From a virus: a stretch of DNA of 42,830 nucleotides. A program made the translations under genes and the position numbers. This document shows, one piece after another, positions 3,406 through 41,297 of this stretch. The stretch is taken from positions 1 to 42,830 of the IMG/VR virus record IMGVR_UViG_3300045988_095743, one strand, 5' to 3'. Under the pieces are notes generated by a model. The model saw nothing but the letters and a program-made list of their open reading frames with translations, did not search any database and was not told where the DNA came from. Within the stretch, counting starts at the first letter, position 1. The number at the start of each line of letters is the position of its first letter.

Positions 3406-3624
3406 TTACTGCACCAGGTTTTGAAACTGCTTTGCCATCTGCTGAAGCTGGTTGAGCTGATCCTGCGAAATCGCTCCGCTCTGCAACAGCTTTTCAACTT
3501 CCGCTTTGGGGTCTCCCTTGAAATTCGCCTTGAACTGGTTGAACTGCTGCACCATCTTGGCAAAGCCGCCAATCGGCCCGGCCATCTGTCCGCCGCCAAG
3601 CGCAGCCATAAACGGATTACTCAT
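3406..3624 (-). CDS. Hypothetical small helical protein (72 aa)
   Basis: The second ATG (3624) sits 9 nt after GAGGAGG and overlaps the upstream stop (ATGAGTAA). Confidence 0.6.
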   Translation of the reverse strand: MSNPFMAALGGGQMAGPIGGFAKMVQQFNQFKANFKGDPKAEVEKLLQSGAISQDQLNQLQQMAKQFQNLVQ

Positions 3625-8251: not shown

Positions 8252-9043
8252 TTACCACCAAAGAACATTTCCGTTTTCATCTGCCAAAACAGCGCCGCTG
8301 CCATCTTCGACAGCCGCCAGCAGTCTATTTTCAGCCAATACATCCAGGATATCAGAGACCATCAGCTGGTCCGGCTGCCACCGAGCCCCGTCCGCCGTGC
8401 GGACCACGATGTCCCCCGGGTCTCCGCCGGGCGGCAGGCTGCCGTCAATGGCGATGGGCAGGCCCGTGTCCCGGTACGCCCCATCCTGCCAGATGAGCCA
8501 GGTCTGGGTCTCCTCGTTAATGCGGGGCGGGTGCTCCGTGGCATCCTGGGCGGCCATGGCCGCGCCCGCCGCCGCATCCGCCGAGCCCTTCGCCGCCTTG
8601 GCGGCGTCCTCTGCGGCTTTCTGCGCCTCCTGGGCATTCTTGGCCCCCTGCTGGGCCGCTGCGGCGTCCTTGCCTGCCTGGTCCAGCCAGCCCTGCTGCA
8701 CCTCGCCGGGGTCCCCGCAGGCGCAGAGGGAAGGCGCCACCAGCGTCCGCCAGGTCTGGGACTTGGCCAGCGTGTCCCCCACGTAGTAAGATAGCTGCAC
8801 GTCGCCCCAGCCGGGCTTGTCCACGTCGGCGGCCCGCAGCACCCAGACCGCCGTGTCCTCCTCCTGCGTCACGCCGCAGGGATAGGGCTCCGCGTCCCCC
8901 GCCCGCTTGGCGCAGAGGCTCACGGCGCCGTCGCCGTAAGCCGCCCGCCAGGCCCGGAGGTCGAAGACCACCTGTCGGGCCAGCGTCTCACCCTTGCGCC
9001 CCAGCGCCAGGTGAACGCCGGGATGGGCATAGATACTCTGCAT
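8252..9043 (-). CDS. Hypothetical late/structural protein with an Ala-rich coiled segment (263 aa)
   Basis: The start was moved to ATG 9043, behind AAGGAGG. The longer form from 9208 overlaps the neighbouring gene. Confidence 0.65.
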   Translation of the reverse strand: MQSIYAHPGVHLALGRKGETLARQVVFDLRAWRAAYGDGAVSLCAKRAGDAEPYPCGVTQEEDTAVWVLRAADVDKPGWGDVQLSYYVGDTLAKSQTWRTLVAPSLCACGDPGEVQQGWLDQAGKDAAAAQQGAKNAQEAQKAAEDAAKAAKGSADAAAGAAMAAQDATEHPPRINEETQTWLIWQDGAYRDTGLPIAIDGSLPPGGDPGDIVVRTADGARWQPDQLMVSDILDVLAENRLLAAVEDGSGAVLADENGNVLWW

Positions 9044-9053
9044 ACCCGCCTCC

Positions 9054-9350
9054 TTACCGCAGCACCCTGCGGCCCTCGACGGCGTACCAGTCGCCCTTGA
9101 GGCAAACGAAGGCGGGCATCTCGCCGCAGTCGCAGTCCACCAGCTCATCGTCCCGGACCTGCACGGGGTCCAGGGTGCCGGTGCCGGTGTCCAGCAGGCC
9201 CCAGCCATCGGCGATCATCTCCGGCGTCAGCCGGGGGCGGTCCGGGTCCACCAGGATGGGGTGGCCCAGCTCCCGAAGACGCCGGTTGCACTCCTCCAGG
9301 GTGATGCCGCCCTGGGCGTAGGCGTTGACGGTCTCAGTAACCTTGCTCAT
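9054..9350 (-). CDS. Hypothetical protein (98 aa)
   Basis: ATG behind GAGAGGAG. Confidence 0.6.
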   Translation of the reverse strand: MSKVTETVNAYAQGGITLEECNRRLRELGHPILVDPDRPRLTPEMIADGWGLLDTGTGTLDPVQVRDDELVDCDCGEMPAFVCLKGDWYAVEGRRVLR

Positions 9351-9666
9351 GCTCTCGCTCCTCTCTCACATCCCGCCGCCGCTGATGAGCCAGGCGGCAA
9401 AGGCCCCCCGCCAGAGCCGCCAGCAGCGTGCTCACAATGCTGTCCCAGCGCTTGCCGGGCCGGGCCGCCAGGCCCTTGACATCCTCCTTGATCTCCGCCA
9501 GGTCCTGCTTGACATGCCCCTGCTCGTTGGCCAGCTCCCGCACGGAGGAGGTCAACTCCAGCAAGGCCTTCTGGTCTGCCTCCAGCTTCTTGATCCGCCC
9601 CTCGTTGCGCCGGGAGCGGTCATCCACCTCCTGCAGCCGCCGCACATACTCAGTCTCGTTCTCCAT
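9334..9666 (-). CDS. XhlA-like protein (coiled coil plus C-terminal membrane anchor); the C-terminus may be frameshifted
   Basis: GAGGAGG RBS. The coiled coil is followed by KRWDSIVSTLLAALAGG. The frame then becomes Arg-rich after a C6 run at 9404-9409. Confidence 0.55.
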   Translation of the reverse strand: MENETEYVRRLQEVDDRSRRNEGRIKKLEADQKALLELTSSVRELANEQGHVKQDLAEIKEDVKGLAARPGKRWDSIVSTLLAALAGGLCRLAHQRRRDVREEREHEQGY

Positions 9667-9683
9667 GGGTCACCTCCTCAAAA

Positions 9684-10448
9684 TTATCGGATCCTCTCGA
9701 TGCGCACGCATCCCGCGCCGCCGGACCCCGCACCCAGCCAGCCGGTATAGTAGGCGTCGTTGCGGACTGCGGTCGGCTTGCCGCCTCCTCCGCCGTAGCC
9801 GCCTCCGCCTCCGGCCCCGGAGTAGTAGCCCTTGGTACTGCCAACATAATACAGATTGCCGTTGGCTCCGCTGCCGGCCCCGCGGCTGCCGGTCCTGCCG
9901 TTGCTGGTATGTGTGTTGCCGGACTCGGACAGCGCATATCCGCCATCGCCTCCGTCCCCGCCGAAGAGGCCCGCCCCTCCGGCTGCACTTACCGCCTCGT
10001 CGTCCCGCAGGCCTGCCGCTCCGCCGACGGAGCGGAGACTGGCGTCATAGATGCCGTCCGGCGGCGTGACGTCCGGAGTTTCGGTCCCGTTGCTAGGAAA
10101 TGCCACCACGCCAGAGCCGGTAACGGCCCCCGCCGTCTTGCCGCTGCCTCTGGCGGCGGAGATCAAAGCGCTCCCGCCGTAAGAGAGTGTGCTGGCCATA
10201 TCCGAAATGGTAGCCGTCAGCACTGCTCCCGCCGGGAGATACTTGTCCAGATATCCGCCGCCGCCTGCACCTCCGGGAGCAGGGGTGGAGAGCGGAGCGG
10301 AATCGTCTCCGTATCCGCCGGCGCCGTGTCCGATGGCGGTAATGCGGTACCATCCGGCATAGGGGACGGTATAGGTGCCGCTCTCCGTCAGGAGCGCCAG
10401 AACCGGCCGGAACTGGGCGGACATGCCGCCCACACTGAGCTGTCCCAT
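9684..10448 (-). CDS. Glycine-rich tail-fibre-type protein (254 aa)
   Basis: GGGAGGTGAGGGG RBS. Contains GGAGGGG and GGGGGYGGGGG tracts. Confidence 0.65.
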   Translation of the reverse strand: MGQLSVGGMSAQFRPVLALLTESGTYTVPYAGWYRITAIGHGAGGYGDDSAPLSTPAPGGAGGGGYLDKYLPAGAVLTATISDMASTLSYGGSALISAARGSGKTAGAVTGSGVVAFPSNGTETPDVTPPDGIYDASLRSVGGAAGLRDDEAVSAAGGAGLFGGDGGDGGYALSESGNTHTSNGRTGSRGAGSGANGNLYYVGSTKGYYSGAGGGGGYGGGGGKPTAVRNDAYYTGWLGAGSGGAGCVRIERIR

Positions 10449-10452
10449 CCCC

Positions 10453-11001
10453 TCACCTCCCGATGGTCACCTGCAGCTTGATGGCCGCAGTGGGCTTGTT
10501 GACGACCCTGCAGTAGAGATAGCCGTTCTGGCGGCACCCCACGTAGGCCCCCGGCTCCTGCAGGCAGGCGAAGGCCTCGTCGTTGGCCTGGGACCCGCTC
10601 TCGCTGCGCACCGGGTCTACCCGTGTCCGGGTGTCATCCGTGGTCAGGAGGCCCGCCACCGCCACGCTCTGGGTGTACCCGCCGGTGACGGCCGTCCATC
10701 CGGAGACCGTCAGCGTCGCCTGGATGGGCTTGCGCAGGATCCCCGCCAGGGCCTGGTTGACGGTCGGGTCCCCCGTGAGCCCCAGCTTGCTGGCCGTGGT
10801 ATCATCCAGCAGATTGGCCTTATTCAGATAGGTAGGTTTCTGCTCCCACCCGGCGTCGTTCAGACCGTTCAGGTCGATGGGCAGAGTTCCTTCCACAAGA
10901 GCCGCGGCAAACGCCTCATAGTCAGGATACAGCGTAAGGAAATTTGCTACCGATTTTAGATACCGGCTGTTGCCGTTCGCTTTGCTGATTCCGTCTTTCA
11001 C
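10453..11001 (-). CDS. Tail-fibre-associated protein (182 aa)
   Basis: The GTG start overlaps the upstream stop (GTGA). Assigned by position within the fibre cluster. Confidence 0.6.
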   Translation of the reverse strand: MKDGISKANGNSRYLKSVANFLTLYPDYEAFAAALVEGTLPIDLNGLNDAGWEQKPTYLNKANLLDDTTASKLGLTGDPTVNQALAGILRKPIQATLTVSGWTAVTGGYTQSVAVAGLLTTDDTRTRVDPVRSESGSQANDEAFACLQEPGAYVGCRQNGYLYCRVVNKPTAAIKLQVTIGR

Positions 11002-21490: not shown

Positions 21491-21625
21491 TTACGCAGGG
21501 GATTGGTATTTTATTTTCTTTTGAACTTCCAGAATCACTACGCCGTCACCTTTTCGCCGGACCTCGGCGTTGTTCCCTCGTTTTAGGATAGCCTCGATGG
21601 CCTGTACCATTTCTTTCTCAATCAT
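21491..21625 (-). CDS. Small hypothetical protein (44 aa)
   Basis: The ATG overlaps the MuF stop (ATGATTGA). Sequence MIEKEMVQAIEAILKRGNNAEVRRKGDGVVILEV... Confidence 0.4.
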   Translation of the reverse strand: MIEKEMVQAIEAILKRGNNAEVRRKGDGVVILEVQKKIKYQSPA

Positions 21626-22814
21626 ACAGCACCATCGTCCTTTCTTTCTGCTCCGGCAGGCCCGCCGCCTTGCTAAACTCCCTGTATTTGGCGTTTAGGC
21701 GGTGCAATTTGGAGTTTGCCGCCGTGGCATCATCCATTAGGTTTGCGGCCTTGTAGCCGTTTTTAAGGCGCTTCTGAGCCCGAATTTGGCGCTCTACACG
21801 ACGCTGCATCTGGGTCGCCTCGTAAGCGGTGTATTTCTTACCGTCAAAGGTGCAGCCAAGGCCGTCGTCAATGTGGGCCAGCTGCTCGTCGGTATAGGTG
21901 CGCTCTGATACGCCCTCGACCCAACTAAACCTTTTATGGCGACAGTTGGCTCCTTCCAGTCCATCCACATACCCAAGCCCGCATACCTCGTAAATGTTGG
22001 GGTAAATATCACCGCTGTGAATGGAATAAACCTTCCCCTGCCAGTCTTTGTGTGAGGACCACGGAGACGGGCCAGGCACATCACGGGCCCCCGCATGGGC
22101 GGAAACTTCAAAATACGGTGTTTCCAGATATTCGGCGGATTGTTCCGTGTACTTTGCGCAAATCTTATTCACGCCAGTCATCACGGCTCTGCGGGCGGCC
22201 ACGTCAATTTGATCTCGATGGCCACTCTCATAGTCAACCACCTTTAGGCCGCTTTCCGCTAGCTGTTTTACGGCGGATTTGATAGCCTGATTGTAGCTGA
22301 TAGCGCCGCTCTGGATTTGCATTACGGCAATATCAAGCGCCCATTGGTAAGCCTTTGCCGGTGGGAGCATTGTCCGCCCTGCGTCTACCAGAAATCCCAT
22401 GGAGGCCGTCAGGTTTCGGAACGTATCCAGCGTTTGCCGCCTGATCGTATCCACCGTGGCGGCGTCCACCAGCGTTTCCGGCTGCGTGACGTGGGCGAGA
22501 TCAATCATTTCGGTGTAGTATTTTTGGTTGCGCTCTACTACATCGTCTAGCAGCTTTTTGAGCTTTTTCTCGCTGATGCCGGAAGTCTGGCGGATGGCCT
22601 TTTCAACCTCTTTGAGATCAATACCGTGCGCTCGCAAAGCCCGGATATCTTGCACCGTTACCTCGTTGAGCTGGTCGGCGGCTTTAAGGCGAGAGCATAT
22701 TTCATCTAAAAGTGTATCTTCAAGGCCTCGATACAACTTTGCCAATTCTTCGGGGAGGGCATCTAGCAGCTCTGGCGTAAAAGGGTACTTTTTCAAGACT
22801 TTTTCTTTTTCCAT
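21618..22814 (-). CDS. Minor head protein, MuF / SPP1 gp7 family (398 aa)
   Basis: Position in the head module. The central region has the pattern typical of the head-morphogenesis family. Confidence 0.75.
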   Translation of the reverse strand: MEKEKVLKKYPFTPELLDALPEELAKLYRGLEDTLLDEICSRLKAADQLNEVTVQDIRALRAHGIDLKEVEKAIRQTSGISEKKLKKLLDDVVERNQKYYTEMIDLAHVTQPETLVDAATVDTIRRQTLDTFRNLTASMGFLVDAGRTMLPPAKAYQWALDIAVMQIQSGAISYNQAIKSAVKQLAESGLKVVDYESGHRDQIDVAARRAVMTGVNKICAKYTEQSAEYLETPYFEVSAHAGARDVPGPSPWSSHKDWQGKVYSIHSGDIYPNIYEVCGLGYVDGLEGANCRHKRFSWVEGVSERTYTDEQLAHIDDGLGCTFDGKKYTAYEATQMQRRVERQIRAQKRLKNGYKAANLMDDATAANSKLHRLNAKYREFSKAAGLPEQKERTMVLYD

Positions 22815-23341
22815 TTAAACGCATACTTAACACCAGCGGCTTTTGCAAATTTGGCATACACATTGTTTGTCGCTTCTGTTTGCGCTTTTCTGCTCGCTGC
22901 CTTGGCCTCCTGCGGACTTTTGTACTTTCCCGCCTTATAATCGGCTGACACTTTATTTGCCGCTTCTCTTACGGCTCGTCGGACATAATTATGATTATAT
23001 GCTAGCGTTTCATAAAATCCCTTGTTGTGAGGCCCAGATAATGTAAACGTTGCATCTCGGCTCTCAATTATGATTGCTTTGGCGCCCGACTTTTGCCACG
23101 TTTCAATATCTTTTAAGGACGGGACGGGAAGAACGCCCTCCGGATGATTGTGTAAAACAATATTCCCTTTATAGTCGGTATCGCCGTATCCTGCGTGTTG
23201 AGCTGTTCCTTGCTCTTTATAGAGCAAATCGCCCGATGGAGCAAATACAAAAAGCTGTTCTTTTTTTAGGTTGGCGATTTTTGCCCTAGCAGCATTTATT
23301 GATGCAAATCCAAAACTTCCGCTTCCTCCTCTTCCGCCCAT
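22793..23341 (-). CDS. JAB/MPN (RadC-like) domain protein with an MGGRGGSGS leader (182 aa)
   Basis: AGGAGG lies 8 nt before the ATG, embedded 46 nt inside the upstream gene. VLHNHPEGVLPVPSLKD resembles the JAMM H-x-H...S-x-x-D motif with one extra residue. Confidence 0.55.
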   Translation of the reverse strand: MGGRGGSGSFGFASINAARAKIANLKKEQLFVFAPSGDLLYKEQGTAQHAGYGDTDYKGNIVLHNHPEGVLPVPSLKDIETWQKSGAKAIIIESRDATFTLSGPHNKGFYETLAYNHNYVRRAVREAANKVSADYKAGKYKSPQEAKAASRKAQTEATNNVYAKFAKAAGVKYAFKWKKKKS

Positions 23342-23958
23342 TTTGCTTTCCTCCTGTTAACAATGCTATCGTAGTGTGGAGCTATGCGTATTACGTTCCA
23401 ATCGCACTCTGGGGGGACCTTCCCATAAAAGATCACCCATTTCGGCAGTAGCCTTTTCATCATTTCCTCATAGCCACGCAAAAACAAGCGGTTGCTTTCC
23501 TTGTTTTTCTGCGTCCCCACCGAGGAAACCGCCACAACACCGCCGACAGGTTCACCGTCAAAGCACCAGTCATAACTATTCTCATCGCTCCATGAGATTG
23601 TCGGATAAACCGTCATTCCGTGGAGCTGCCAGTATGCCGCAAGCCAGTGTTTACGATAGTGATTGTATATCTGCATTGCAAGCGGCATATCTGTGTATGT
23701 GGAAAAATCAGGCGCGCACACCGCCGCAAACTGTGAAAGCTTCGGAATGTACTTATCCGGCGTATTCCAGTGCCGGATAAATTGGTAATCGTCCACAAAG
23801 AAATGTACAATTTTGCTTGCCGGGTCTTTTTCTGCGTAATGGTAATTTACCGGGATAAAATCGCTTTTCGGGTATGCCTTGACCGGCTCAATCTGCGGAA
23901 TGCCGTACTTGCCAACGCCGGAAAATGTAAACTTGTCGAGGTTTTCAAAATTTATCAT
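23296..23958 (-). CDS. DUF4417-like protein (220 aa)
   Basis: The pattern VHFFVDDYQF...PDFS...YRKHWLAAYWQ..G..V.PT.SW is recalled from DUF4417. The region is AT-richer by eye. Confidence 0.6.
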   Translation of the reverse strand: MINFENLDKFTFSGVGKYGIPQIEPVKAYPKSDFIPVNYHYAEKDPASKIVHFFVDDYQFIRHWNTPDKYIPKLSQFAAVCAPDFSTYTDMPLAMQIYNHYRKHWLAAYWQLHGMTVYPTISWSDENSYDWCFDGEPVGGVVAVSSVGTQKNKESNRLFLRGYEEMMKRLLPKWVIFYGKVPPECDWNVIRIAPHYDSIVNRRKAKWAEEEEAEVLDLHQ

Positions 23959-23969
23959 ACAACCTCACA

Positions 23970-24019
23970 ACCTCCAACAAGCAAAATGCCGTAAGATGCA
24001 TTTCTGCACCTTACGGCAT
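23970..24019 (-). terminator. Hairpin plus T-rich run inside the head operon
   Basis: ATGCCGTAAG-14 nt-CTTACGGCAT (23986-24019), then TTTGCTTGTT on the minus strand. Confidence 0.55.
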
Positions 24020-24078
24020 AGCAAGCGCCCGGAATCAAACCGGAACTCCCTCAAACAAAGTGTGCTGCCATTACACCA

Positions 24079-24471
24079 CTACTTGCTACGCCGATTGTAC
24101 CATATTCTTTTCACCCTTGCAACCATCTTCTTTTCTTCGGTTGTAAGGTTCGCATACCCTTTTGTACTGTTATTCTCGTTGTGAATATAGCCGTGGTGGG
24201 TATGCGGGGAAACCTTATCATGCGGTCTGTCTAGGTCTATTTGTTTTGTGCGCTTGTTCTCGACATCATAATATGTAATTGATTTGATATTGTTGTTCTT
24301 GTTCAGCGTTACGTATATGCGCCCACGTGTCATGGTTTCCATTGGCGTTTTCTGCGCACCGTCAACCGCCTTTACAAACTTAATATTGCCAACTTTTAGA
24401 AGCGTTCTAAATTCGCTGCCGTAAGGCTTGCCCTTTACGCTCATGCCGCTACTAGCGCCACGCCCGCCCAT
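24079..24471 (-). CDS. Hypothetical protein with an MGGRGASSG leader and a His cluster (130 aa)
   Basis: The ATG overlaps the portal stop (TAATG). AT-rich. Contains SPHTHHGYIHNE. Confidence 0.65.
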   Translation of the reverse strand: MGGRGASSGMSVKGKPYGSEFRTLLKVGNIKFVKAVDGAQKTPMETMTRGRIYVTLNKNNNIKSITYYDVENKRTKQIDLDRPHDKVSPHTHHGYIHNENNSTKGYANLTTEEKKMVARVKRIWYNRRSK

Positions 24472-25895
24472 TATTCGACCTCATCCTGTTTCTCGTCCAC
24501 CAGCTCTTGCAGCTTCGGAAGCATTTTCCTTGCCGTCGCTTCGTCTTCCCCATACCATTTCATTCGGTATTCAACAAGGCTCATGGCTCCCATGCTTACA
24601 TCCTGCCGGTCCTGCGCCCGCTCGCTTTCGGTATCGGTGATAATCGAATCGTCGAAATTAACCGTAATCACTACATTTTCGTTGAGCCCCGCGTTCATTG
24701 CGGTATTGCCCAGCCGCAGGATCACGCGGCACAGCTCCACAAGCGCCTGCCGCAACACGATTTCGTGTTTTCTGATTGTGCTGAACATGGTGCTGTTTTC
24801 ACTGATAACCTGTGTCGCCGTGGCCATGCTATTGCCGTTAAAACGGTAATAGGTTTCTCCAAAGCCGCACTTGCTAGATAAAAGGTTTAGCTGATCTTGC
24901 AAGCCCACATTGAGCTTATCTGTGCGGAGCTGCGGGGAAATGGGCTCAACAACGCTCCCCTGCTGAGTATCTTCTTCCAGGAGATAAAACCGGCGATCAT
25001 GGGAATCGAGAGACGGCTTCCCATCCTCCCACCTGGTAGCGGGCATTTTTACCGCAAGTAACAGAGGGCCGTTTTCAAACTCGTTGACGTAGCAATCATA
25101 GGCGCTATCCACGCCACGAAGTACATCAATTGCGTTGGCAAATACAGGGATACCCGTCGGGAGAAGGTAATTAAAATTGTTGGCGATGTTAGGACGATCA
25201 ATCACGAACTGCCGCTTATCGCTTCCGGTATGTACCACGGGCGGAATGCGCTCAAACCCGGAAACATCCGTCAACGCAACATCGGACAGGGTTTCGTTTT
25301 CATAGCGGTAAATGCTGTTCTCGATGACGTACAGGCCGTTTGCGTCTTTTCGGTGAATCTGGAGATACAGGTACGTCTTTCCGTGCACCGTTACCACGCT
25401 ATCAAAGGCGCACTCGGAGATAAAGCCATTCCGCCACGCAAGGGGGAAAATATGCTCGATGGTAACGTAATCCAGCTCAATCCCAGTCGCTTCGCCCGGA
25501 ATGGGCTCACCGTCGCTACGGACGCTCTGCCCAATCACTCTAGGAATATAGGCTACCGTGCCAAGAGCGGATTTCATTTCCTGCATCTCGTTTGCCTTAA
25601 CGGAAAAATTATTCTCCGTCAGGATGCGATCAATGAATTCCTGCTCCTTCTGTCCTTCCAGCGTGATCTGGACTTTTTCGTTCATCAGAAGGTTTGCCCA
25701 ATCCTCGCAAACCTTCTTCCCCATGCCAAGCGTCGCCCGTTCGCAGCTCACCCAATCATGGCCGTTATAGCGCTTGTAGCGATGGAACCCCTTGACGTTT
25801 CCCTGATACCAGGACTTCCACACATCAACCTGCGTGTAAAACTCCTCGGGGATCGTGGTATAGCCAAGCTGTTTGAGTTTGTCGATTACCGTCAT
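24471..25895 (-). CDS. Portal protein (SPP1 gp6-like, 474 aa)
   Basis: Follows TerL with an overlapping stop/start. Size and N-terminal pattern are typical of portals. Confidence 0.85.
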   Translation of the reverse strand: MTVIDKLKQLGYTTIPEEFYTQVDVWKSWYQGNVKGFHRYKRYNGHDWVSCERATLGMGKKVCEDWANLLMNEKVQITLEGQKEQEFIDRILTENNFSVKANEMQEMKSALGTVAYIPRVIGQSVRSDGEPIPGEATGIELDYVTIEHIFPLAWRNGFISECAFDSVVTVHGKTYLYLQIHRKDANGLYVIENSIYRYENETLSDVALTDVSGFERIPPVVHTGSDKRQFVIDRPNIANNFNYLLPTGIPVFANAIDVLRGVDSAYDCYVNEFENGPLLLAVKMPATRWEDGKPSLDSHDRRFYLLEEDTQQGSVVEPISPQLRTDKLNVGLQDQLNLLSSKCGFGETYYRFNGNSMATATQVISENSTMFSTIRKHEIVLRQALVELCRVILRLGNTAMNAGLNENVVITVNFDDSIITDTESERAQDRQDVSMGAMSLVEYRMKWYGEDEATARKMLPKLQELVDEKQDEVE

Positions 25896-38975: not shown

Positions 38976-39095
38976 TCAGGCCTTCGCCTCCTCCGTTTCC
39001 TTTTCTTCCCGGAAGATCTCAATTTCGGCGGTATAGCCGTACCGGGCTAGGGTCTTCTCGATCAAAAACCTATAAGCCTGCTCAAAGCAATCCAT
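38976..39095 (-). CDS. Very small hypothetical protein (39 aa)
   Basis: GAGGAGG lies 7 nt before the ATG. Confidence 0.35.
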   Translation of the reverse strand: MDCFEQAYRFLIEKTLARYGYTAEIEIFREEKETEEAKA

Positions 39096-39160
39096 AACAC
39101 GACCTCCTCATGCCACGATATGCGGGAAACGCTTGTCTCCTGCGCATCTCCTTCTTGCGG

Positions 39161-39445
39161 TCAAACCTCAAACACGCGCCCCTGGGAGCGCAAAGCGTTG
39201 ACCAACTCATCATAGGCCGCGTTCGCCTCAGATTCCGTGGGGTAGAACTTGACCACCGTATAGCCCCGTTGCAAGGCAAACATTCTGATGCAATCGTAGG
39301 AGCGCCCAACTTTCGGAAGCTCCCCCTGCTTCAGCGGCTCGCGCGTCTTGGTGTTGACCAGGACTTCTGCGGGCTTTACGTAGATATCATCGCTCTCTCC
39401 CAGAGAGCAGCAACACATTCCCATGGGATTGTTGATGTAATTCAT
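39161..39445 (-). CDS. Hypothetical early protein (94 aa)
   Basis: Clean ORF with no motif recognised. Confidence 0.6.
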   Translation of the reverse strand: MNYINNPMGMCCCSLGESDDIYVKPAEVLVNTKTREPLKQGELPKVGRSYDCIRMFALQRGYTVVKFYPTESEANAAYDELVNALRSQGRVFEV

Positions 39446-39454
39446 GCTTCCTCC

Positions 39455-39658
39455 TTAGTCCTCCTCAATTATCGCCACAACCAAGCCAACGGCCGCCGCC
39501 AGCAAGAGGAGAAGCACGATGCAGAATAATACGCCGTTCTCCGTCCCAACGATCAACGCCGTAACAAGCATTAAAATGATGGCGACCGTAGCGGCTACCG
39601 CAATCGTTGCGCAACAAACCAAAAAGCACTTAATAAATCGCTTAATGAACCGCTTCAT
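39455..39658 (-). CDS. Small two-TM membrane protein (67 aa)
   Basis: Two long hydrophobic stretches. ATGA-type overlap with the Cro-like gene. Confidence 0.6.
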   Translation of the reverse strand: MKRFIKRFIKCFLVCCATIAVAATVAIILMLVTALIVGTENGVLFCIVLLLLLAAAVGLVVAIIEED

Positions 39659-39876
39659 GCCCCCTCACCCGCCCTTGCTTCTTGCGCCGCCCGGATGGCG
39701 GCGATGATCTCCTCGTCGGTGACGTGGTACAGCTTCGCCAGTTTGGGAACGAACTTGCTTGCGATGCCGTTGGCTCCTCGCTCCCACTGAGAAACGGCAT
39801 TCTGGGAAACGTACAGCTTCCGTGCGACATAGGGCTGTTTCAGCCCCGCCGCCTCCCGAAGCTCCTTCAATGTCAA
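39655..39876 (-). CDS. Cro-like XRE-family HTH protein (73 aa)
   Basis: TTG start 6 nt after AAGGAGGG. The ATGs at 39969 and 39909 have no RBS. HTH: QPYVARKLYVSQNAVSQWERG. Confidence 0.7.
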   Translation of the reverse strand: MTLKELREAAGLKQPYVARKLYVSQNAVSQWERGANGIASKFVPKLAKLYHVTDEEIIAAIRAAQEARAGEGA

Positions 39877-39910
39877 ATGAAACCCTCCTTTCAATATGAA
39901 GAACTTCATC

Positions 39911-39939
39911 TTGACAAACAGAGATACGGCCGCTATTAT
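39911..39939 (+). promoter_or_regulatory. Near-consensus sigma-70 promoter firing rightward
   Basis: TTGACA, 17 nt, TATTAT. Confidence 0.65.
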
Positions 39940-39990
39940 GTAAGTGTCAGCCAACAAAATATCGGTCATAGGCCCGCAGAACGGAGAAAT

Positions 39991-40010
39991 CCGAGGGGGC
40001 TTGGTTTTTT
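39991..40010 (+). terminator. Weak hairpin plus T6 (possible attenuator of the rightward transcript)
   Basis: CCGAG-GGGG-CTTGG, then TTTTTT. Confidence 0.35.
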
Positions 40011-40032
40011 GTTGCCTTGTGAAGTTCTGTAA

Positions 40033-40088
40033 GGCTATTATAGCCTACATAATGGTGGATGTCAATGGAATATCCGCCATTATGTAGG
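40033..40088. promoter_or_regulatory. Nested palindromes (candidate operators) over the leftward promoter
   Basis: GGCTAT-t-ATAGCC (40033-40045). CCTACATAATGG (40044-55) and CCATTATGTAGG (40077-88) form a perfect 12-bp inverted repeat, extendable to 17 bp. Confidence 0.6.
40037..40065 (-). promoter_or_regulatory. Consensus sigma-70 promoter firing leftward (early/lytic)
   Basis: The minus strand reads TTGACA (40065-40060), 17 nt, TATAAT (40042-40037). Confidence 0.7.
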
Positions 40089-40135
40089 ATTTTATGTTAT
40101 GTACAATATTCGCTTTTTTAATTTGGTGATTTTGT

Positions 40136-40837
40136 ATGCTTAATAGTTCTTTTAATATCTTGCGATCTACAGGCGCATACAATATTTTTGACGACGAATC
40201 AGTTTCTCTTGAAGAAAAAAATGCGGCATATTTAGAGATAAGAGAAAATGAGATTGCTCGGCTCAAAAACGCATACGATTTTGAAACCGTTCAAGGTATA
40301 CGAAGTATCCCGGTTCCTTGCCGGGAAGTTAACGGCGATTCTCCAACAGGAAGGGTAGAGTACTATCTTAGAGGCAAATGCTTTATTGACCATTGCAGGG
40401 CCGGGCACGTACAAATAGCCGTAGAATGCATTCGCAAGGCTCATAGTTTAATGTTTGTTTCTGATATGATATGGAAATATGATTCCTACATATCCGGAAT
40501 TTCTTGGTTGCATAATATTGGGGCGCATAAAGAAGCTTGGGAAGAAGAGCAAAGAGTTGATGAGCATTTTAAAAAAGAAGGATTTTACCCTCGTTTTTCT
40601 TTGTGGGATTTTTCAAGCCCATTGAAATATTTTGAATGGAAAAAAGAAATTAAGAAAATGGAAGAAGAGCGTTTACGAAAACGAAAACTTCGCCATGAGT
40701 ATTATTTATTGCAAGAAAAATTGCCGGAGTTGTGCCCAAAATCATTGGCAGGGTATTCAAGGATGAAAAATTCTAATACTAAGAATTATCAAAAGCTGAC
40801 AAAAATTGCTTTGCAGGCCGGAGTACAATTGGACTAA
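40136..40837 (+). CDS. Hypothetical AT-rich protein (233 aa), first gene of the repressor operon
   Basis: GGTGA lies 6 nt before the ATG. Composition is strongly AT-shifted relative to the rest of the genome. No motif recognised. Confidence 0.7.
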   Translation: MLNSSFNILRSTGAYNIFDDESVSLEEKNAAYLEIRENEIARLKNAYDFETVQGIRSIPVPCREVNGDSPTGRVEYYLRGKCFIDHCRAGHVQIAVECIRKAHSLMFVSDMIWKYDSYISGISWLHNIGAHKEAWEEEQRVDEHFKKEGFYPRFSLWDFSSPLKYFEWKKEIKKMEEERLRKRKLRHEYYLLQEKLPELCPKSLAGYSRMKNSNTKNYQKLTKIALQAGVQLD

Positions 40838-40850
40838 AGGAAAATTATAT

Positions 40851-41297
40851 ATGCCCAAAAAAATTAACAGCGTTTTGCTTAATAAAAGCAGCGTAAATTT
40901 AATTTCAGATTTTTGCAAAAGAAACGATATAAGCGAAGCGGCATTTTCAAGGAAATTTGGCAAAAACAATCGATGGATTAGTGATTTAAGAAGATGCAAA
41001 AATTTAAGCCTGCCTGACGCCGAAGAAGCCGCCCGCATGTGCATCCTCCTAGAAACCACCCCGGAAGAAATCCTGCTGCAAGAAGGAGAGACGGATGAAG
41101 AAACGGCCAAGTGCTTGGAGGATATCCAGAGGGTAAAAGAGCTGGTGGCGGAGCTGCGGAAAGAAGAAGCCCCCGATCCGAAGATCGAGGGCATTAGCGC
41201 AGAGCGTAAAGCGTTATTGGATATTGTTTATTCTCTTACGGATGAGCAATGTAGAAAGCTGCTTGGCGTAGTTTTGGAAGCAAAAAAACTAATGTAG
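40851..41297 (+). CDS. CI-like XRE-family repressor without a peptidase domain (148 aa)
   Basis: ATG 40851 follows AAAGGA. HTH ISEAAFSRKFGKNNRWISDLRR, then an acidic helical C-terminus. Confidence 0.65.
   Translation: MPKKINSVLLNKSSVNLISDFCKRNDISEAAFSRKFGKNNRWISDLRRCKNLSLPDAEEAARMCILLETTPEEILLQEGETDEETAKCLEDIQRVKELVAELRKEEAPDPKIEGISAERKALLDIVYSLTDEQCRKLLGVVLEAKKLM

Follow-up and report, generated by a model that had tools for sequence, protein, structure and literature searches.

We describe here a gene cassette within the head operon of a phage represented by IMG/VR record IMGVR_UViG_3300045988_095743, the full 42,830 nucleotides of which are referred to below as the window. On the minus strand, the window carries in succession a small terminase gene, a large terminase gene, the portal gene, a gene for a 130-residue protein (P1), a spacer, a DUF4417 gene, a gene for a 182-residue protein (P3), a MuF-type gene, the scaffold gene and the major capsid gene. 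Portal and MuF genes are normally neighbors (Jamet et al.), as a preliminary description of this DNA had also held, and the AT-richer cassette that it saw splitting the two is present between them, with a guanine-plus-cytosine (GC) content of 46.1% as compared to 55.1% for the window, a value that falls within the lowest 5% of equal-sized segments. P1 and P3 both begin with the peptide MGGRG, and the constant partner of this leader is DUF4417, not MuF or the portal. The features of the region are the following.

27123-27533, minus strand: small terminase gene
25892-27133, minus strand: large terminase gene
24471-25895, minus strand: portal gene, the upstream flank of the cassette (PF05133; phrog_533, E=2.6e-110)
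24079-24471, minus strand: P1, 130-residue leader protein beginning MGGRGASSG (phrog_9479 family)
24445-24471, minus strand: leader codons 1-9 of P1 (MGGRGASSG)
23959-24078, minus strand: 120-nt spacer between P1 and DUF4417, with the tRNA-like element and the hairpin
24019-24091, minus strand: tRNA-like cloverleaf RNA, putative divergent member of SpF41_sRNA (Rfam, 38.1 bits)
23976-24019, minus strand: 15-bp GC-containing hairpin, then a weak T-run, TTTGCTTGTT
23296-23958, minus strand: DUF4417 protein, 220 residues (PF14386, E=1.7e-57)
22793-23341, minus strand: P3, 182-residue leader protein beginning MGGRGGSGS, with a candidate JAB/MPN+-type domain
23108-23152, minus strand: P3 codons for H64-N-H66-P...S75..D78
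21618-22814, minus strand: MuF-type minor capsid gene (Phage_min_cap2), the downstream flank (PF06152, E=5.6e-89)

Inspection of the gene boundaries shows that the ATG of P1 overlaps the portal stop codon (TAATG), that a GGAGG ribosome-binding site precedes the DUF4417 gene, and that the ATG of P3 lies 46 nt inside the DUF4417 gene behind an AGGAGG ribosome-binding site; the coupling of P1 to the portal stop and the internal start of P3 had both been proposed previously and were verified. P1 and P3 are separate open reading frames (ORFs), each with its own ribosome-binding site, and the 3' end of P3 overlaps the MuF start by 22 nt. The MuF protein of the window is a short form of 398 residues, of which PF06152 spans residues 13-380, and it lacks a C-terminal toxin domain. 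No immunity-sized gene lies between the cassette genes of the window, where the RNA element and DUF4417 come after P1 and MuF comes after P3, and no prohead protease gene was recognized between its portal and capsid genes.

Six-frame translation of the window yields matches to [MVL]GGRG only at the starts of the P1 and P3 ORFs. The leader arginine is encoded by CGT in P1 and by AGA in P3, indicating that conservation operates at the level of the peptide; conservation at the DNA level, as a recombination site or a ribosome-binding effect, was ruled out because the codons differ between copies. To place the leader in a wider context, we used a viral set of 80 IMG/VR loci with near-identical DUF4417 and a genome set of 80 species-level bacterial genomes in which DUF4417 is 51-87% identical. 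The 105 leader-bearing ORFs of the 80 genome loci give the consensus M-G-G-R-G-[SAG]-S-S-G-[LIFM], which always begins at residue 1 and is followed by a flexible Gly/Ser stretch. An MGGRG start is likewise present in 116 of the 120 listed P1 homologues (1248 homologues in total), and distant P3 homologues begin MGGRGASS, MGGRGSSSG, MGGRGSAGG and similar, a pattern that bears out the earlier suggestion that P1 and P3 share an N-terminal tag. Leader residues 1-8 are disordered in the AlphaFold2 (AF2) model of P1. Methionine aminopeptidase removes Met before Gly, and we infer that the mature leader end is Gly-Gly-Arg-Gly.

What follows the leader is highly variable: sorting of the C-terminal parts gives at least 17 unrelated families in the 80 IMG/VR loci and at least 28 in the 80 genome loci. 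The leader proteins therefore combine a conserved N-terminal part with variable C-terminal domains, as polymorphic toxin systems do. Many of them end in runs of Lys or Arg (KKKKKK, RRRRR, KRRKKR), with at least four such residues among the last eight in 24 of the 105; the C-terminus of P3 is Lys-rich and ends KWKKKKS. Several otherwise unrelated leader proteins have in common a second motif, LP.L.GS[EA]KQ[IV].WA..IR, placed after the Gly-rich stretch (L003:7153-7521 and the leader ORFs of loci L066, L070, L056, L099, L206, L215 and L281).

The leader is easily missed in annotation. The genes for gp23 of streptococcal phage A25 (L084:3501-3911) and for SA01_31 of phage SA01 (L085:3501-3911) have annotated starts at an internal Met (position 3528) that lies nine codons past the MGGRG start, so that the leader is hidden, and AOQ27429 of pneumococcal phage SpGS-1 is annotated from far upstream, so that its GGGRG motif appears internal. 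One further ORF (L156:11515, minus strand) opens with MGGRGGAGGG and then runs on, in the same frame, into the C-terminal third of DUF4417 (VVAVSSVGTQ...); it looks like a deletion chimera of a leader gene and DUF4417.

The association between the leader and DUF4417 holds in both sets of loci. Among the 80 IMG/VR loci, 79 have one to four MGGRG ORFs by DUF4417, and the exception is cut 231 nt upstream of DUF4417. In the genome set, a leader ORF directly adjoins DUF4417 in 68 of the 80 loci and lies within 0.8 kb in three more, and two loci are truncated; the adjoining ORFs are downstream only in 52 cases, upstream only in 14 and on both sides in two, with the downstream ORFs of the 52 loci starting between -46 and +167 nt relative to the DUF4417 stop. 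All 105 leader ORFs lie on the strand of DUF4417, and none was found on the opposite strand of these loci (469 kb). A blind scan of IMG/VR with a DNA pattern for a degenerate leader returned some 70 genuine MGGRGG ORF starts; a DUF4417 ORF is present in the same stretch for 65 matches, the exceptions being in short loci or near a locus end, and the remaining matches of the scan are internal Gly-rich runs in high-GC contigs. DUF4417, which had been taken for a bystander, thus adjoins the leader in approximately 90-99% of loci, and the leader start codon often falls within the 3' end of the DUF4417 gene.

The pairing extends to Streptococcus phages A25 and SA01, Dorea phage DO134P1, Roseburia phage Jekyll and Mycobacterium phage CELFI. 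In CELFI (L209:2417-3465), DUF4417 (gp110) stands beside a 117-residue protein (gp111) with the start (V)MGGRGGGGGG, and the pair is surrounded by a cluster of 11 tRNA genes; a prophage contig (L150, IMG/VR UViG 2595698624) carries a near-identical pair. Variant starts occur as well, both in a Christensenellales phage, whose leader protein combines the start MGTRGSSS with an R / S-x-S / E-x-E pattern, and in mycobacteriophage D29, where ORF02 and ORF03 encode DUF4417 and a protein with a Gly-rich variant start.

The position of the module within the genome, in contrast to its composition, is not conserved. Only in the present phage lineage does it lie between portal and MuF. It is found upstream of the terminase genes in A25, SA01, DO134P1, Jekyll, L003 and L292, at the left cos end in D29, in the tRNA cluster of CELFI and after a major tail gene in the Christensenellales phage, and terminase genes are the first recognizable downstream genes in 28 of the 44 genome loci with a recognizable neighbor. 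The MuF/portal adjacency that the preliminary description had emphasized therefore fails as a general rule, since Streptococcus, Dorea, Roseburia and Mycobacterium phages and most Clostridia prophages differ, and we rejected it as the defining context of the module (L003, A25, SA01, DO134P1, Jekyll and the genome loci). The survey for MGGRG-leader ORFs beside MuF that had been suggested finds the recurrence to be by DUF4417, mostly upstream of terminase genes.

Assignment of the central cassette protein to DUF4417 is firm (PF14386, 194.3 bits against a cut-off of 28.9, residues 15-190), and it also matches phrog_8680 and phrog_940. Many Asp, His, Cys and Ser residues are invariant in the family, which suggests that DUF4417 is an enzyme; the invariant set includes H52, D56, D57, R62, D84, S86, D90, C132, D134 and S145. 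The AF2 model (predicted local distance difference test score, pLDDT, 83.7; predicted template-modelling score, pTM, 0.80) consists of repeated beta-alpha units. Searches of the PDB by sequence found nothing, and Foldseek comparison of the model with the PDB gave no match at E<=1e-3; the best PDB fold matches are mostly barrel-fold enzymes (alanine racemase, TIM, PdxJ; E ~0.05-0.1), and neither TGT nor DpdA is among the best 50. Against viral models, the first Foldseek matches outside the family are phage proteins labeled queuine tRNA-ribosyltransferase (TGT/DpdA-like), at E=1e-3 to 2e-2 and template-modelling (TM) scores of 0.45-0.48. Comparison with E. coli Tgt by hhalign detected no profile similarity (probability 0.1%), and tblastn from E. 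coli Tgt did not reach phage DpdA sequences. We treat this weak, model-based resemblance as a lead only.

DUF4417 also occurs fused to a ParB_N domain, in SpGS-1 and in loci L292 and L293, where a P3-like JAB protein follows. DpdA works with a ParB-like ATPase, DpdB (PMC10164549), and by analogy the fusions are suggestive of a parallel with the DpdA/DpdB DNA transglycosylase system, in which a barrel-type enzyme is likewise paired with a ParB-fold domain. The parallel differs in that the structural similarity of DUF4417 is weak and is not accompanied by sequence similarity; 7-deazaguanine synthesis genes were not noted in the loci with annotation or Pfam calls, although no search was aimed at them. 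A programmed -1 frameshift joining DUF4417 to the leader protein was rejected as a candidate: the A-run at the overlap (GCA AAA TGG) occurs in the window and in L292, but A25 and the Dorea phage lack it. The start codon overlap by itself accounts for the conserved 'KW..EEE' tail of DUF4417.

Turning to the leader proteins themselves, P3 contains the catalytic signature of JAMM proteins, E...H-x-H...S-x-x-D, in the form of E28, H64-x-H66, S75 and D78. In an alignment of 20 sequences of 25-39% identity, E28, H64, N65, H66, P67, S75 and D78 are the only invariant residues, so that the HNHP...S..D motif picked out at the outset proves complete and invariant; the spacing from H66 to S75 is one residue longer than in RadC. 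Profile matches of P3 are weak and consistent. All fall below their cut-offs (RadC, E=0.076; Cap3, E=0.08; PADLOC JAB, E=0.008), all are to JAB families and all cover the same segment, and among the 20 family members seven match Toxin-JAB1 (best 1.5e-3), seven Prok-JAB and five RadC. A profile search of the PDB returned RadC 2qlc only (E=0.3). An exhaustive search of 1.8 billion representatives found 32 relatives, as compared to six close relatives from a word-index search. As far as motif and profile evidence goes, we accept P3 as a JAB-type protein. For JAB domains of the RadC type, it has been argued that nucleic acids, and not isopeptide bonds, are the target (PMC5512222).

Recognizable domains in other leader proteins include ADPrib_exo_Tox (E=4e-32), Gln_amidase/Tox-PL1 (E=1.3e-16) and DUF6883 (E=1.2e-14), and motifs identify an HExxH (metallopeptidase-type) protein and further JAB proteins; Pfam and PHROG searches with ten other leader-protein families from close relatives gave essentially nothing. 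D29 ORF03 matches DUF3626, a family that includes Salmonella SopF, an ADP-ribosyltransferase. Homologues of P3 take one of two forms, being either MGGRG-led stand-alone proteins or C-terminal domains of larger proteins, namely of Phage_Mu_F proteins (P0140 and P0151) and of XkdF-protease polyproteins (P0143 and P0149, the former also with a 2H/Acb1-like domain). VIP2-type ADP-ribosyltransferases are similarly MuF-fused in Microbacterium phages and stand-alone in cluster A2 mycobacteriophages such as D29 (PMC7302621). Judged by sequence, two independent effector families thus alternate between fusion to MuF and a GGRG leader beside DUF4417, an alternation that is the chief argument for the leader system being an alternative route for virion cargo. 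Of the split MuF cargo system imagined in the preliminary description, one half gains support, in that the P3 domain and ADP-ribosyltransferases do also occur fused to MuF; the other half, docking of the tag on MuF or portal, is not backed by gene context.

Several related arrangements were seen in the same loci. In L003 (2472-3998, minus strand), portal and MuF are adjacent, the 508-residue MuF protein has a C-terminal extension of ~110 residues that lacks a Pfam match, and the small terminase gene has DUF4417 and a leader protein on its upstream side; MuF-extension and leader styles of delivery may coexist in this phage. L292, the phage with a ParB_N-DUF4417 fusion and a P3-like protein, encodes at 9017-10497 a MuF protein followed by a stand-alone 174-residue protein with a CdiA_C toxin domain that lacks the MGGRG leader. 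In polyproteins P0143, P0148 and P0149, the motif [KR][FY]NP.HD..GRF and then a Gly/Ser-rich stretch stand ahead of every module; the shorter P0141 and P0142 have the same pair ahead of their only JAB domain. The motif may serve as a further signal for targeting or cleavage. The 'FNPYHDxxGRF' polyprotein locus (P0149, L295) was rejected as an instance of the leader system, since it is devoid of DUF4417 and hence represents a separate system.

P1 belongs to a family of 1248 homologues. Nearly all of the 120 listed have a length of ~130 residues, with no Pfam domain; members at 50-64% identity are found in Streptococcus, Dorea and Roseburia phages. The family has an invariant His-rich motif (H84, P89, H90, H92, H93, Y95, H97, E99). 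P1 found no match in the PDB by sequence, and Foldseek comparison of its AF2 model (pLDDT 76) with the PDB returned nothing significant, the best match being a 57-residue piece of SidI (E=0.07). A weak match to Ntox24 (E=0.016) is below threshold.

The 3' end of P1 overlaps an RNA element: the 5' end of this tRNA-like structure is laid over the last P1 codons. Its architecture consists of an acceptor stem, a D-like arm, a short tetraloop arm in place of the anticodon arm, and a T-arm, GGTTTGATTCC, with the replacement arm forming a stem of 4-5 bp capped by the tetraloop. A true tRNA or tRNA pseudogene was rejected, as ARAGORN and the Rfam tRNA model were negative at the element and there is no anticodon loop. 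The Rfam family SpF41_sRNA (RF02435) matches the window copy at 38.1 bits (E=1e-3), below the gathering score of 52. The same family scores at the same position after the P1 homologues of A25 (99.6 bits), SA01 (96.4), the Dorea phage (71.8), Jekyll (53.5) and L001 (53.3), and the terminator-like hairpin and T-run form the 3' part of the SpF41-type element, with the T-run stronger in A25, SA01 and L001 than in the window. The window element is, from these comparisons, a divergent member of SpF41_sRNA: streptococcal phages A25 and SA01 have the same RNA at this position (96-100 bits), and the window copy differs in its 38-bit, sub-gathering score. In the Dorea phage, a genuine tRNA-Met directly follows the SpF41-type element.

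We also built a model of our own, R1, from the window copy and seven homologues (eight copies in all), which scores the window copy at 83 bits, a partly circular value given that this copy is in the training set. R1 matches follow 26 of 31 P1-family genes, as compared to 0 of 74 other leader ORFs, and the element usually begins 12 nt before the end of the P1-family stop codon. No match was found elsewhere in the 80 genome loci, and the sole other R1 match is a weak one of 20 bits at 28397-28451 of the window. Compensatory changes occur in 13 of 16 pairs, a value reached by 0 of 500 shuffles; this count leans toward structure because the alignment was fitted to the model. As the RNA follows P1-family genes only, it belongs to P1 and not to DUF4417, and although the tRNA-like sequence and hairpin seen after P1 by the preliminary description are present, they are tied to the P1 family and do not serve as punctuation of the cassette. 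Conceivable roles for the RNA are those of a decoy or an antitoxin acting on P1, of a signal for processing, or of a partner RNA. Rfam files SpF41_sRNA as a Streptococcus sRNA, and one published account of SpF41 mentions neither a phage origin nor a link to the P1 family; here it is a phage element linked to a P1-family gene.

Taken together, these data suggest that the leader and DUF4417 form a module that is widespread in phages and undescribed in the literature found, and that the leader proteins are probably carried into the next host. The explanation we prefer, to which we assign a probability of roughly 45%, is that this cassette represents one copy of a mobile phage module in which leader effectors are loaded via DUF4417, leave with the virion and act in the next host. 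Such a module would comprise DUF4417, one or more small interchangeable leader effectors and, in the case of the P1 family only, the tRNA-like RNA with its terminator. Following removal of Met, the exposed Gly-Gly-Arg-Gly end would be the handle that DUF4417 recognizes; DUF4417 would prime or load the effectors, which would exit the cell with the virion and act upon arrival. Loading by the leader would then do the same job as a fusion of these domains to MuF, an arms race with host defenses would lie behind the turnover of C-terminal domains, and the position between portal and MuF would be a lineage-specific landing site that plays no part in the mechanism.

Several observations weigh against this explanation. 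Approximately 10% of the DUF4417 genome loci have no recognizable leader ORF, and the majority of genomes have the module away from the head genes, at sites such as upstream of the small terminase, a tRNA cluster, a cos end or behind a major tail gene. A terminator-like hairpin stands 3' of P1. DUF4417 appears enzyme-like rather than a simple adaptor, its nearest weak structural neighbors act on nucleic acids, and it could serve something unrelated to capsid loading. The JAB assignment of P3 depends on a motif and on matches below Pfam thresholds. Lastly, literature on the virion proteomics of cluster A phages gave no data on the packaging of leader proteins; since no proteomic data were found in the literature, we infer virion delivery from the genes.

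The alternative that survives best, although we judge it unlikely, is that the leader proteins are never packaged. They would instead be enzymes or toxins of lytic growth that act in the infected cell, in takeover or anti-defense, or that are released at lysis, with DUF4417 as a common regulator: a modifier, a chaperone or a generic immunity-like factor, akin to one half of an overlapping antitoxin-toxin pair. This proposal fits the overlap of DUF4417 and leader genes, which resembles that of coupled two-gene systems, the frequent placement of the module at the end of a replication/regulation block, before the small terminase and with a terminator after it, and the existence of toxin-type domains (ADP-ribosyltransferase, deamidase) that lack individual immunity genes. 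It is harder to reconcile with the fusion of the same domains to MuF and to prohead-protease polyproteins, both of which are virion components, with the strict position-1 requirement, which would be unexpected of a simple regulatory tag, and with the location of the module inside the head operon in this phage lineage.

Direct docking of the MGGRG tag on MuF or portal, with gene adjacency reflecting partnership and DUF4417 as a passenger, is improbable. All leader genes of this phage group do lie between portal and MuF, and MuF is a known carrier of such domains; nonetheless, this adjacency is absent in L003, in the Streptococcus, Dorea, Roseburia and Mycobacterium phages and in most of the informative genome loci, and the leader adjoins DUF4417 in approximately 90-99% of loci.

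An equally slim prospect is that DUF4417 is a base-exchange or glycosylase enzyme for nucleic acids, related in fold to TGT/DpdA, which would join the leader Gly or Arg4 to phage DNA, or P1 to the tRNA-like RNA; ParB-like domains would assist it as DpdB does DpdA, and effectors would travel attached to the genome. The Foldseek matches to TGT-like phage models point in this direction, as do the ParB_N-DUF4417 fusions set beside the ParB-like nature of DpdB (PMC10164549), the location of genes near pac or cos ends and of the CELFI DUF4417 in a tRNA cluster, the strictly N-terminal leader and the basic C-terminal tails. Conversely, the negative hhalign comparison with Tgt and the lack of TGT or DpdA among the best 50 PDB matches, none of which falls below E 0.05, argue against such a fold, and the chemistry is purely speculative. 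The boldest form of the idea, in which DUF4417 is a new enzyme that takes the free GGRG N-terminus as substrate and couples effectors covalently to genome or RNA for packaging and injection, is a longer shot still, and would, if true, amount to generic leader-programmed loading of cargo into virions.

Loading of leader effectors via DUF4417, the preferred explanation, has parallels in several known systems. Variable effector domains are likewise placed in the head-gene region of temperate phages by the MuF polymorphic toxins of Jamet et al. (2017) and the phage-type polyvalent proteins of Iyer et al. (2017), and the kinds of domain are shared (ADP-ribosyltransferase, JAB/RadC, peptidases), the P3 domain itself being C-terminal in Phage_Mu_F proteins. 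In MuF toxins, the MuF and toxin domains reside in one polypeptide, an arrangement absent from the window; here the effectors are separate and small, a leader of ~10 residues stands in place of the MuF domain, and DUF4417 is a companion. Polymorphic toxin systems differ further in having a cognate immunity gene directly after each toxin, which is not seen in the window.

The internal proteins of phage T4 and its Alt protein carry an N-terminal capsid-targeting sequence. They resemble the leader proteins in being unrelated proteins with a short N-terminal tag, in their hypervariable loci and in their ADP-ribosyltransferase and anti-defense cargo, and they differ in the sequence of the leader; the present system has DUF4417 as a partner and is known from genes alone. 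In type VI secretion systems (T6SS), the adaptor/chaperone genes DUF4123 and DUF1795 lie upstream of secretion-system effectors, and the likeness is that of a conserved accessory gene placed directly before polymorphic effectors whose sole common part is N-terminal; no secretion system is involved here, and DUF4417 has conserved, enzyme-like polar residues. The module is best filed with phage-delivered polymorphic effectors, and its loading chemistry is possibly new.

The routes known for effector delivery are MuF fusion, huge polyvalent proteins and the T4 capsid-targeting sequence, and delivery of stand-alone effectors by phages of Gram-positive bacteria is poorly understood. In this setting, a ten-residue leader marks dozens of unrelated, mostly unannotated small phage proteins as one functional class. 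Our searches of the literature on DUF4417, PF14386 and MGGRG found no functional description of DUF4417, the leader or the module, and the pairing sets DUF4417, whose family exceeds 7,600 proteins, in a functional context for the first time. An Rfam 'Streptococcus sRNA' can also be reinterpreted as a phage element tied to one protein family. Should the leader indeed program virion loading, it would offer a compact tag for placing chosen proteins in phage particles, as well as a search key for new anti-defense effectors in gut, streptococcal and mycobacterial phages.

Elsewhere in the window, a GC-rich segment of ~1 kb that precedes the small terminase (27534-28590, minus strand) has no convincing gene among its ORFs. 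It contains a tRNA-Ile at 27720-27795, the only tRNA that ARAGORN finds, and a match to the Rfam DUF3800-VIII RNA motif at 27594-27657 (46.5 bits; gathering score, 40.2), and the equivalent position in related phages is occupied by the DUF4417/P1/SpF41 module. A second, stronger low-GC stretch, down to 40% GC, lies at 39000-41000.

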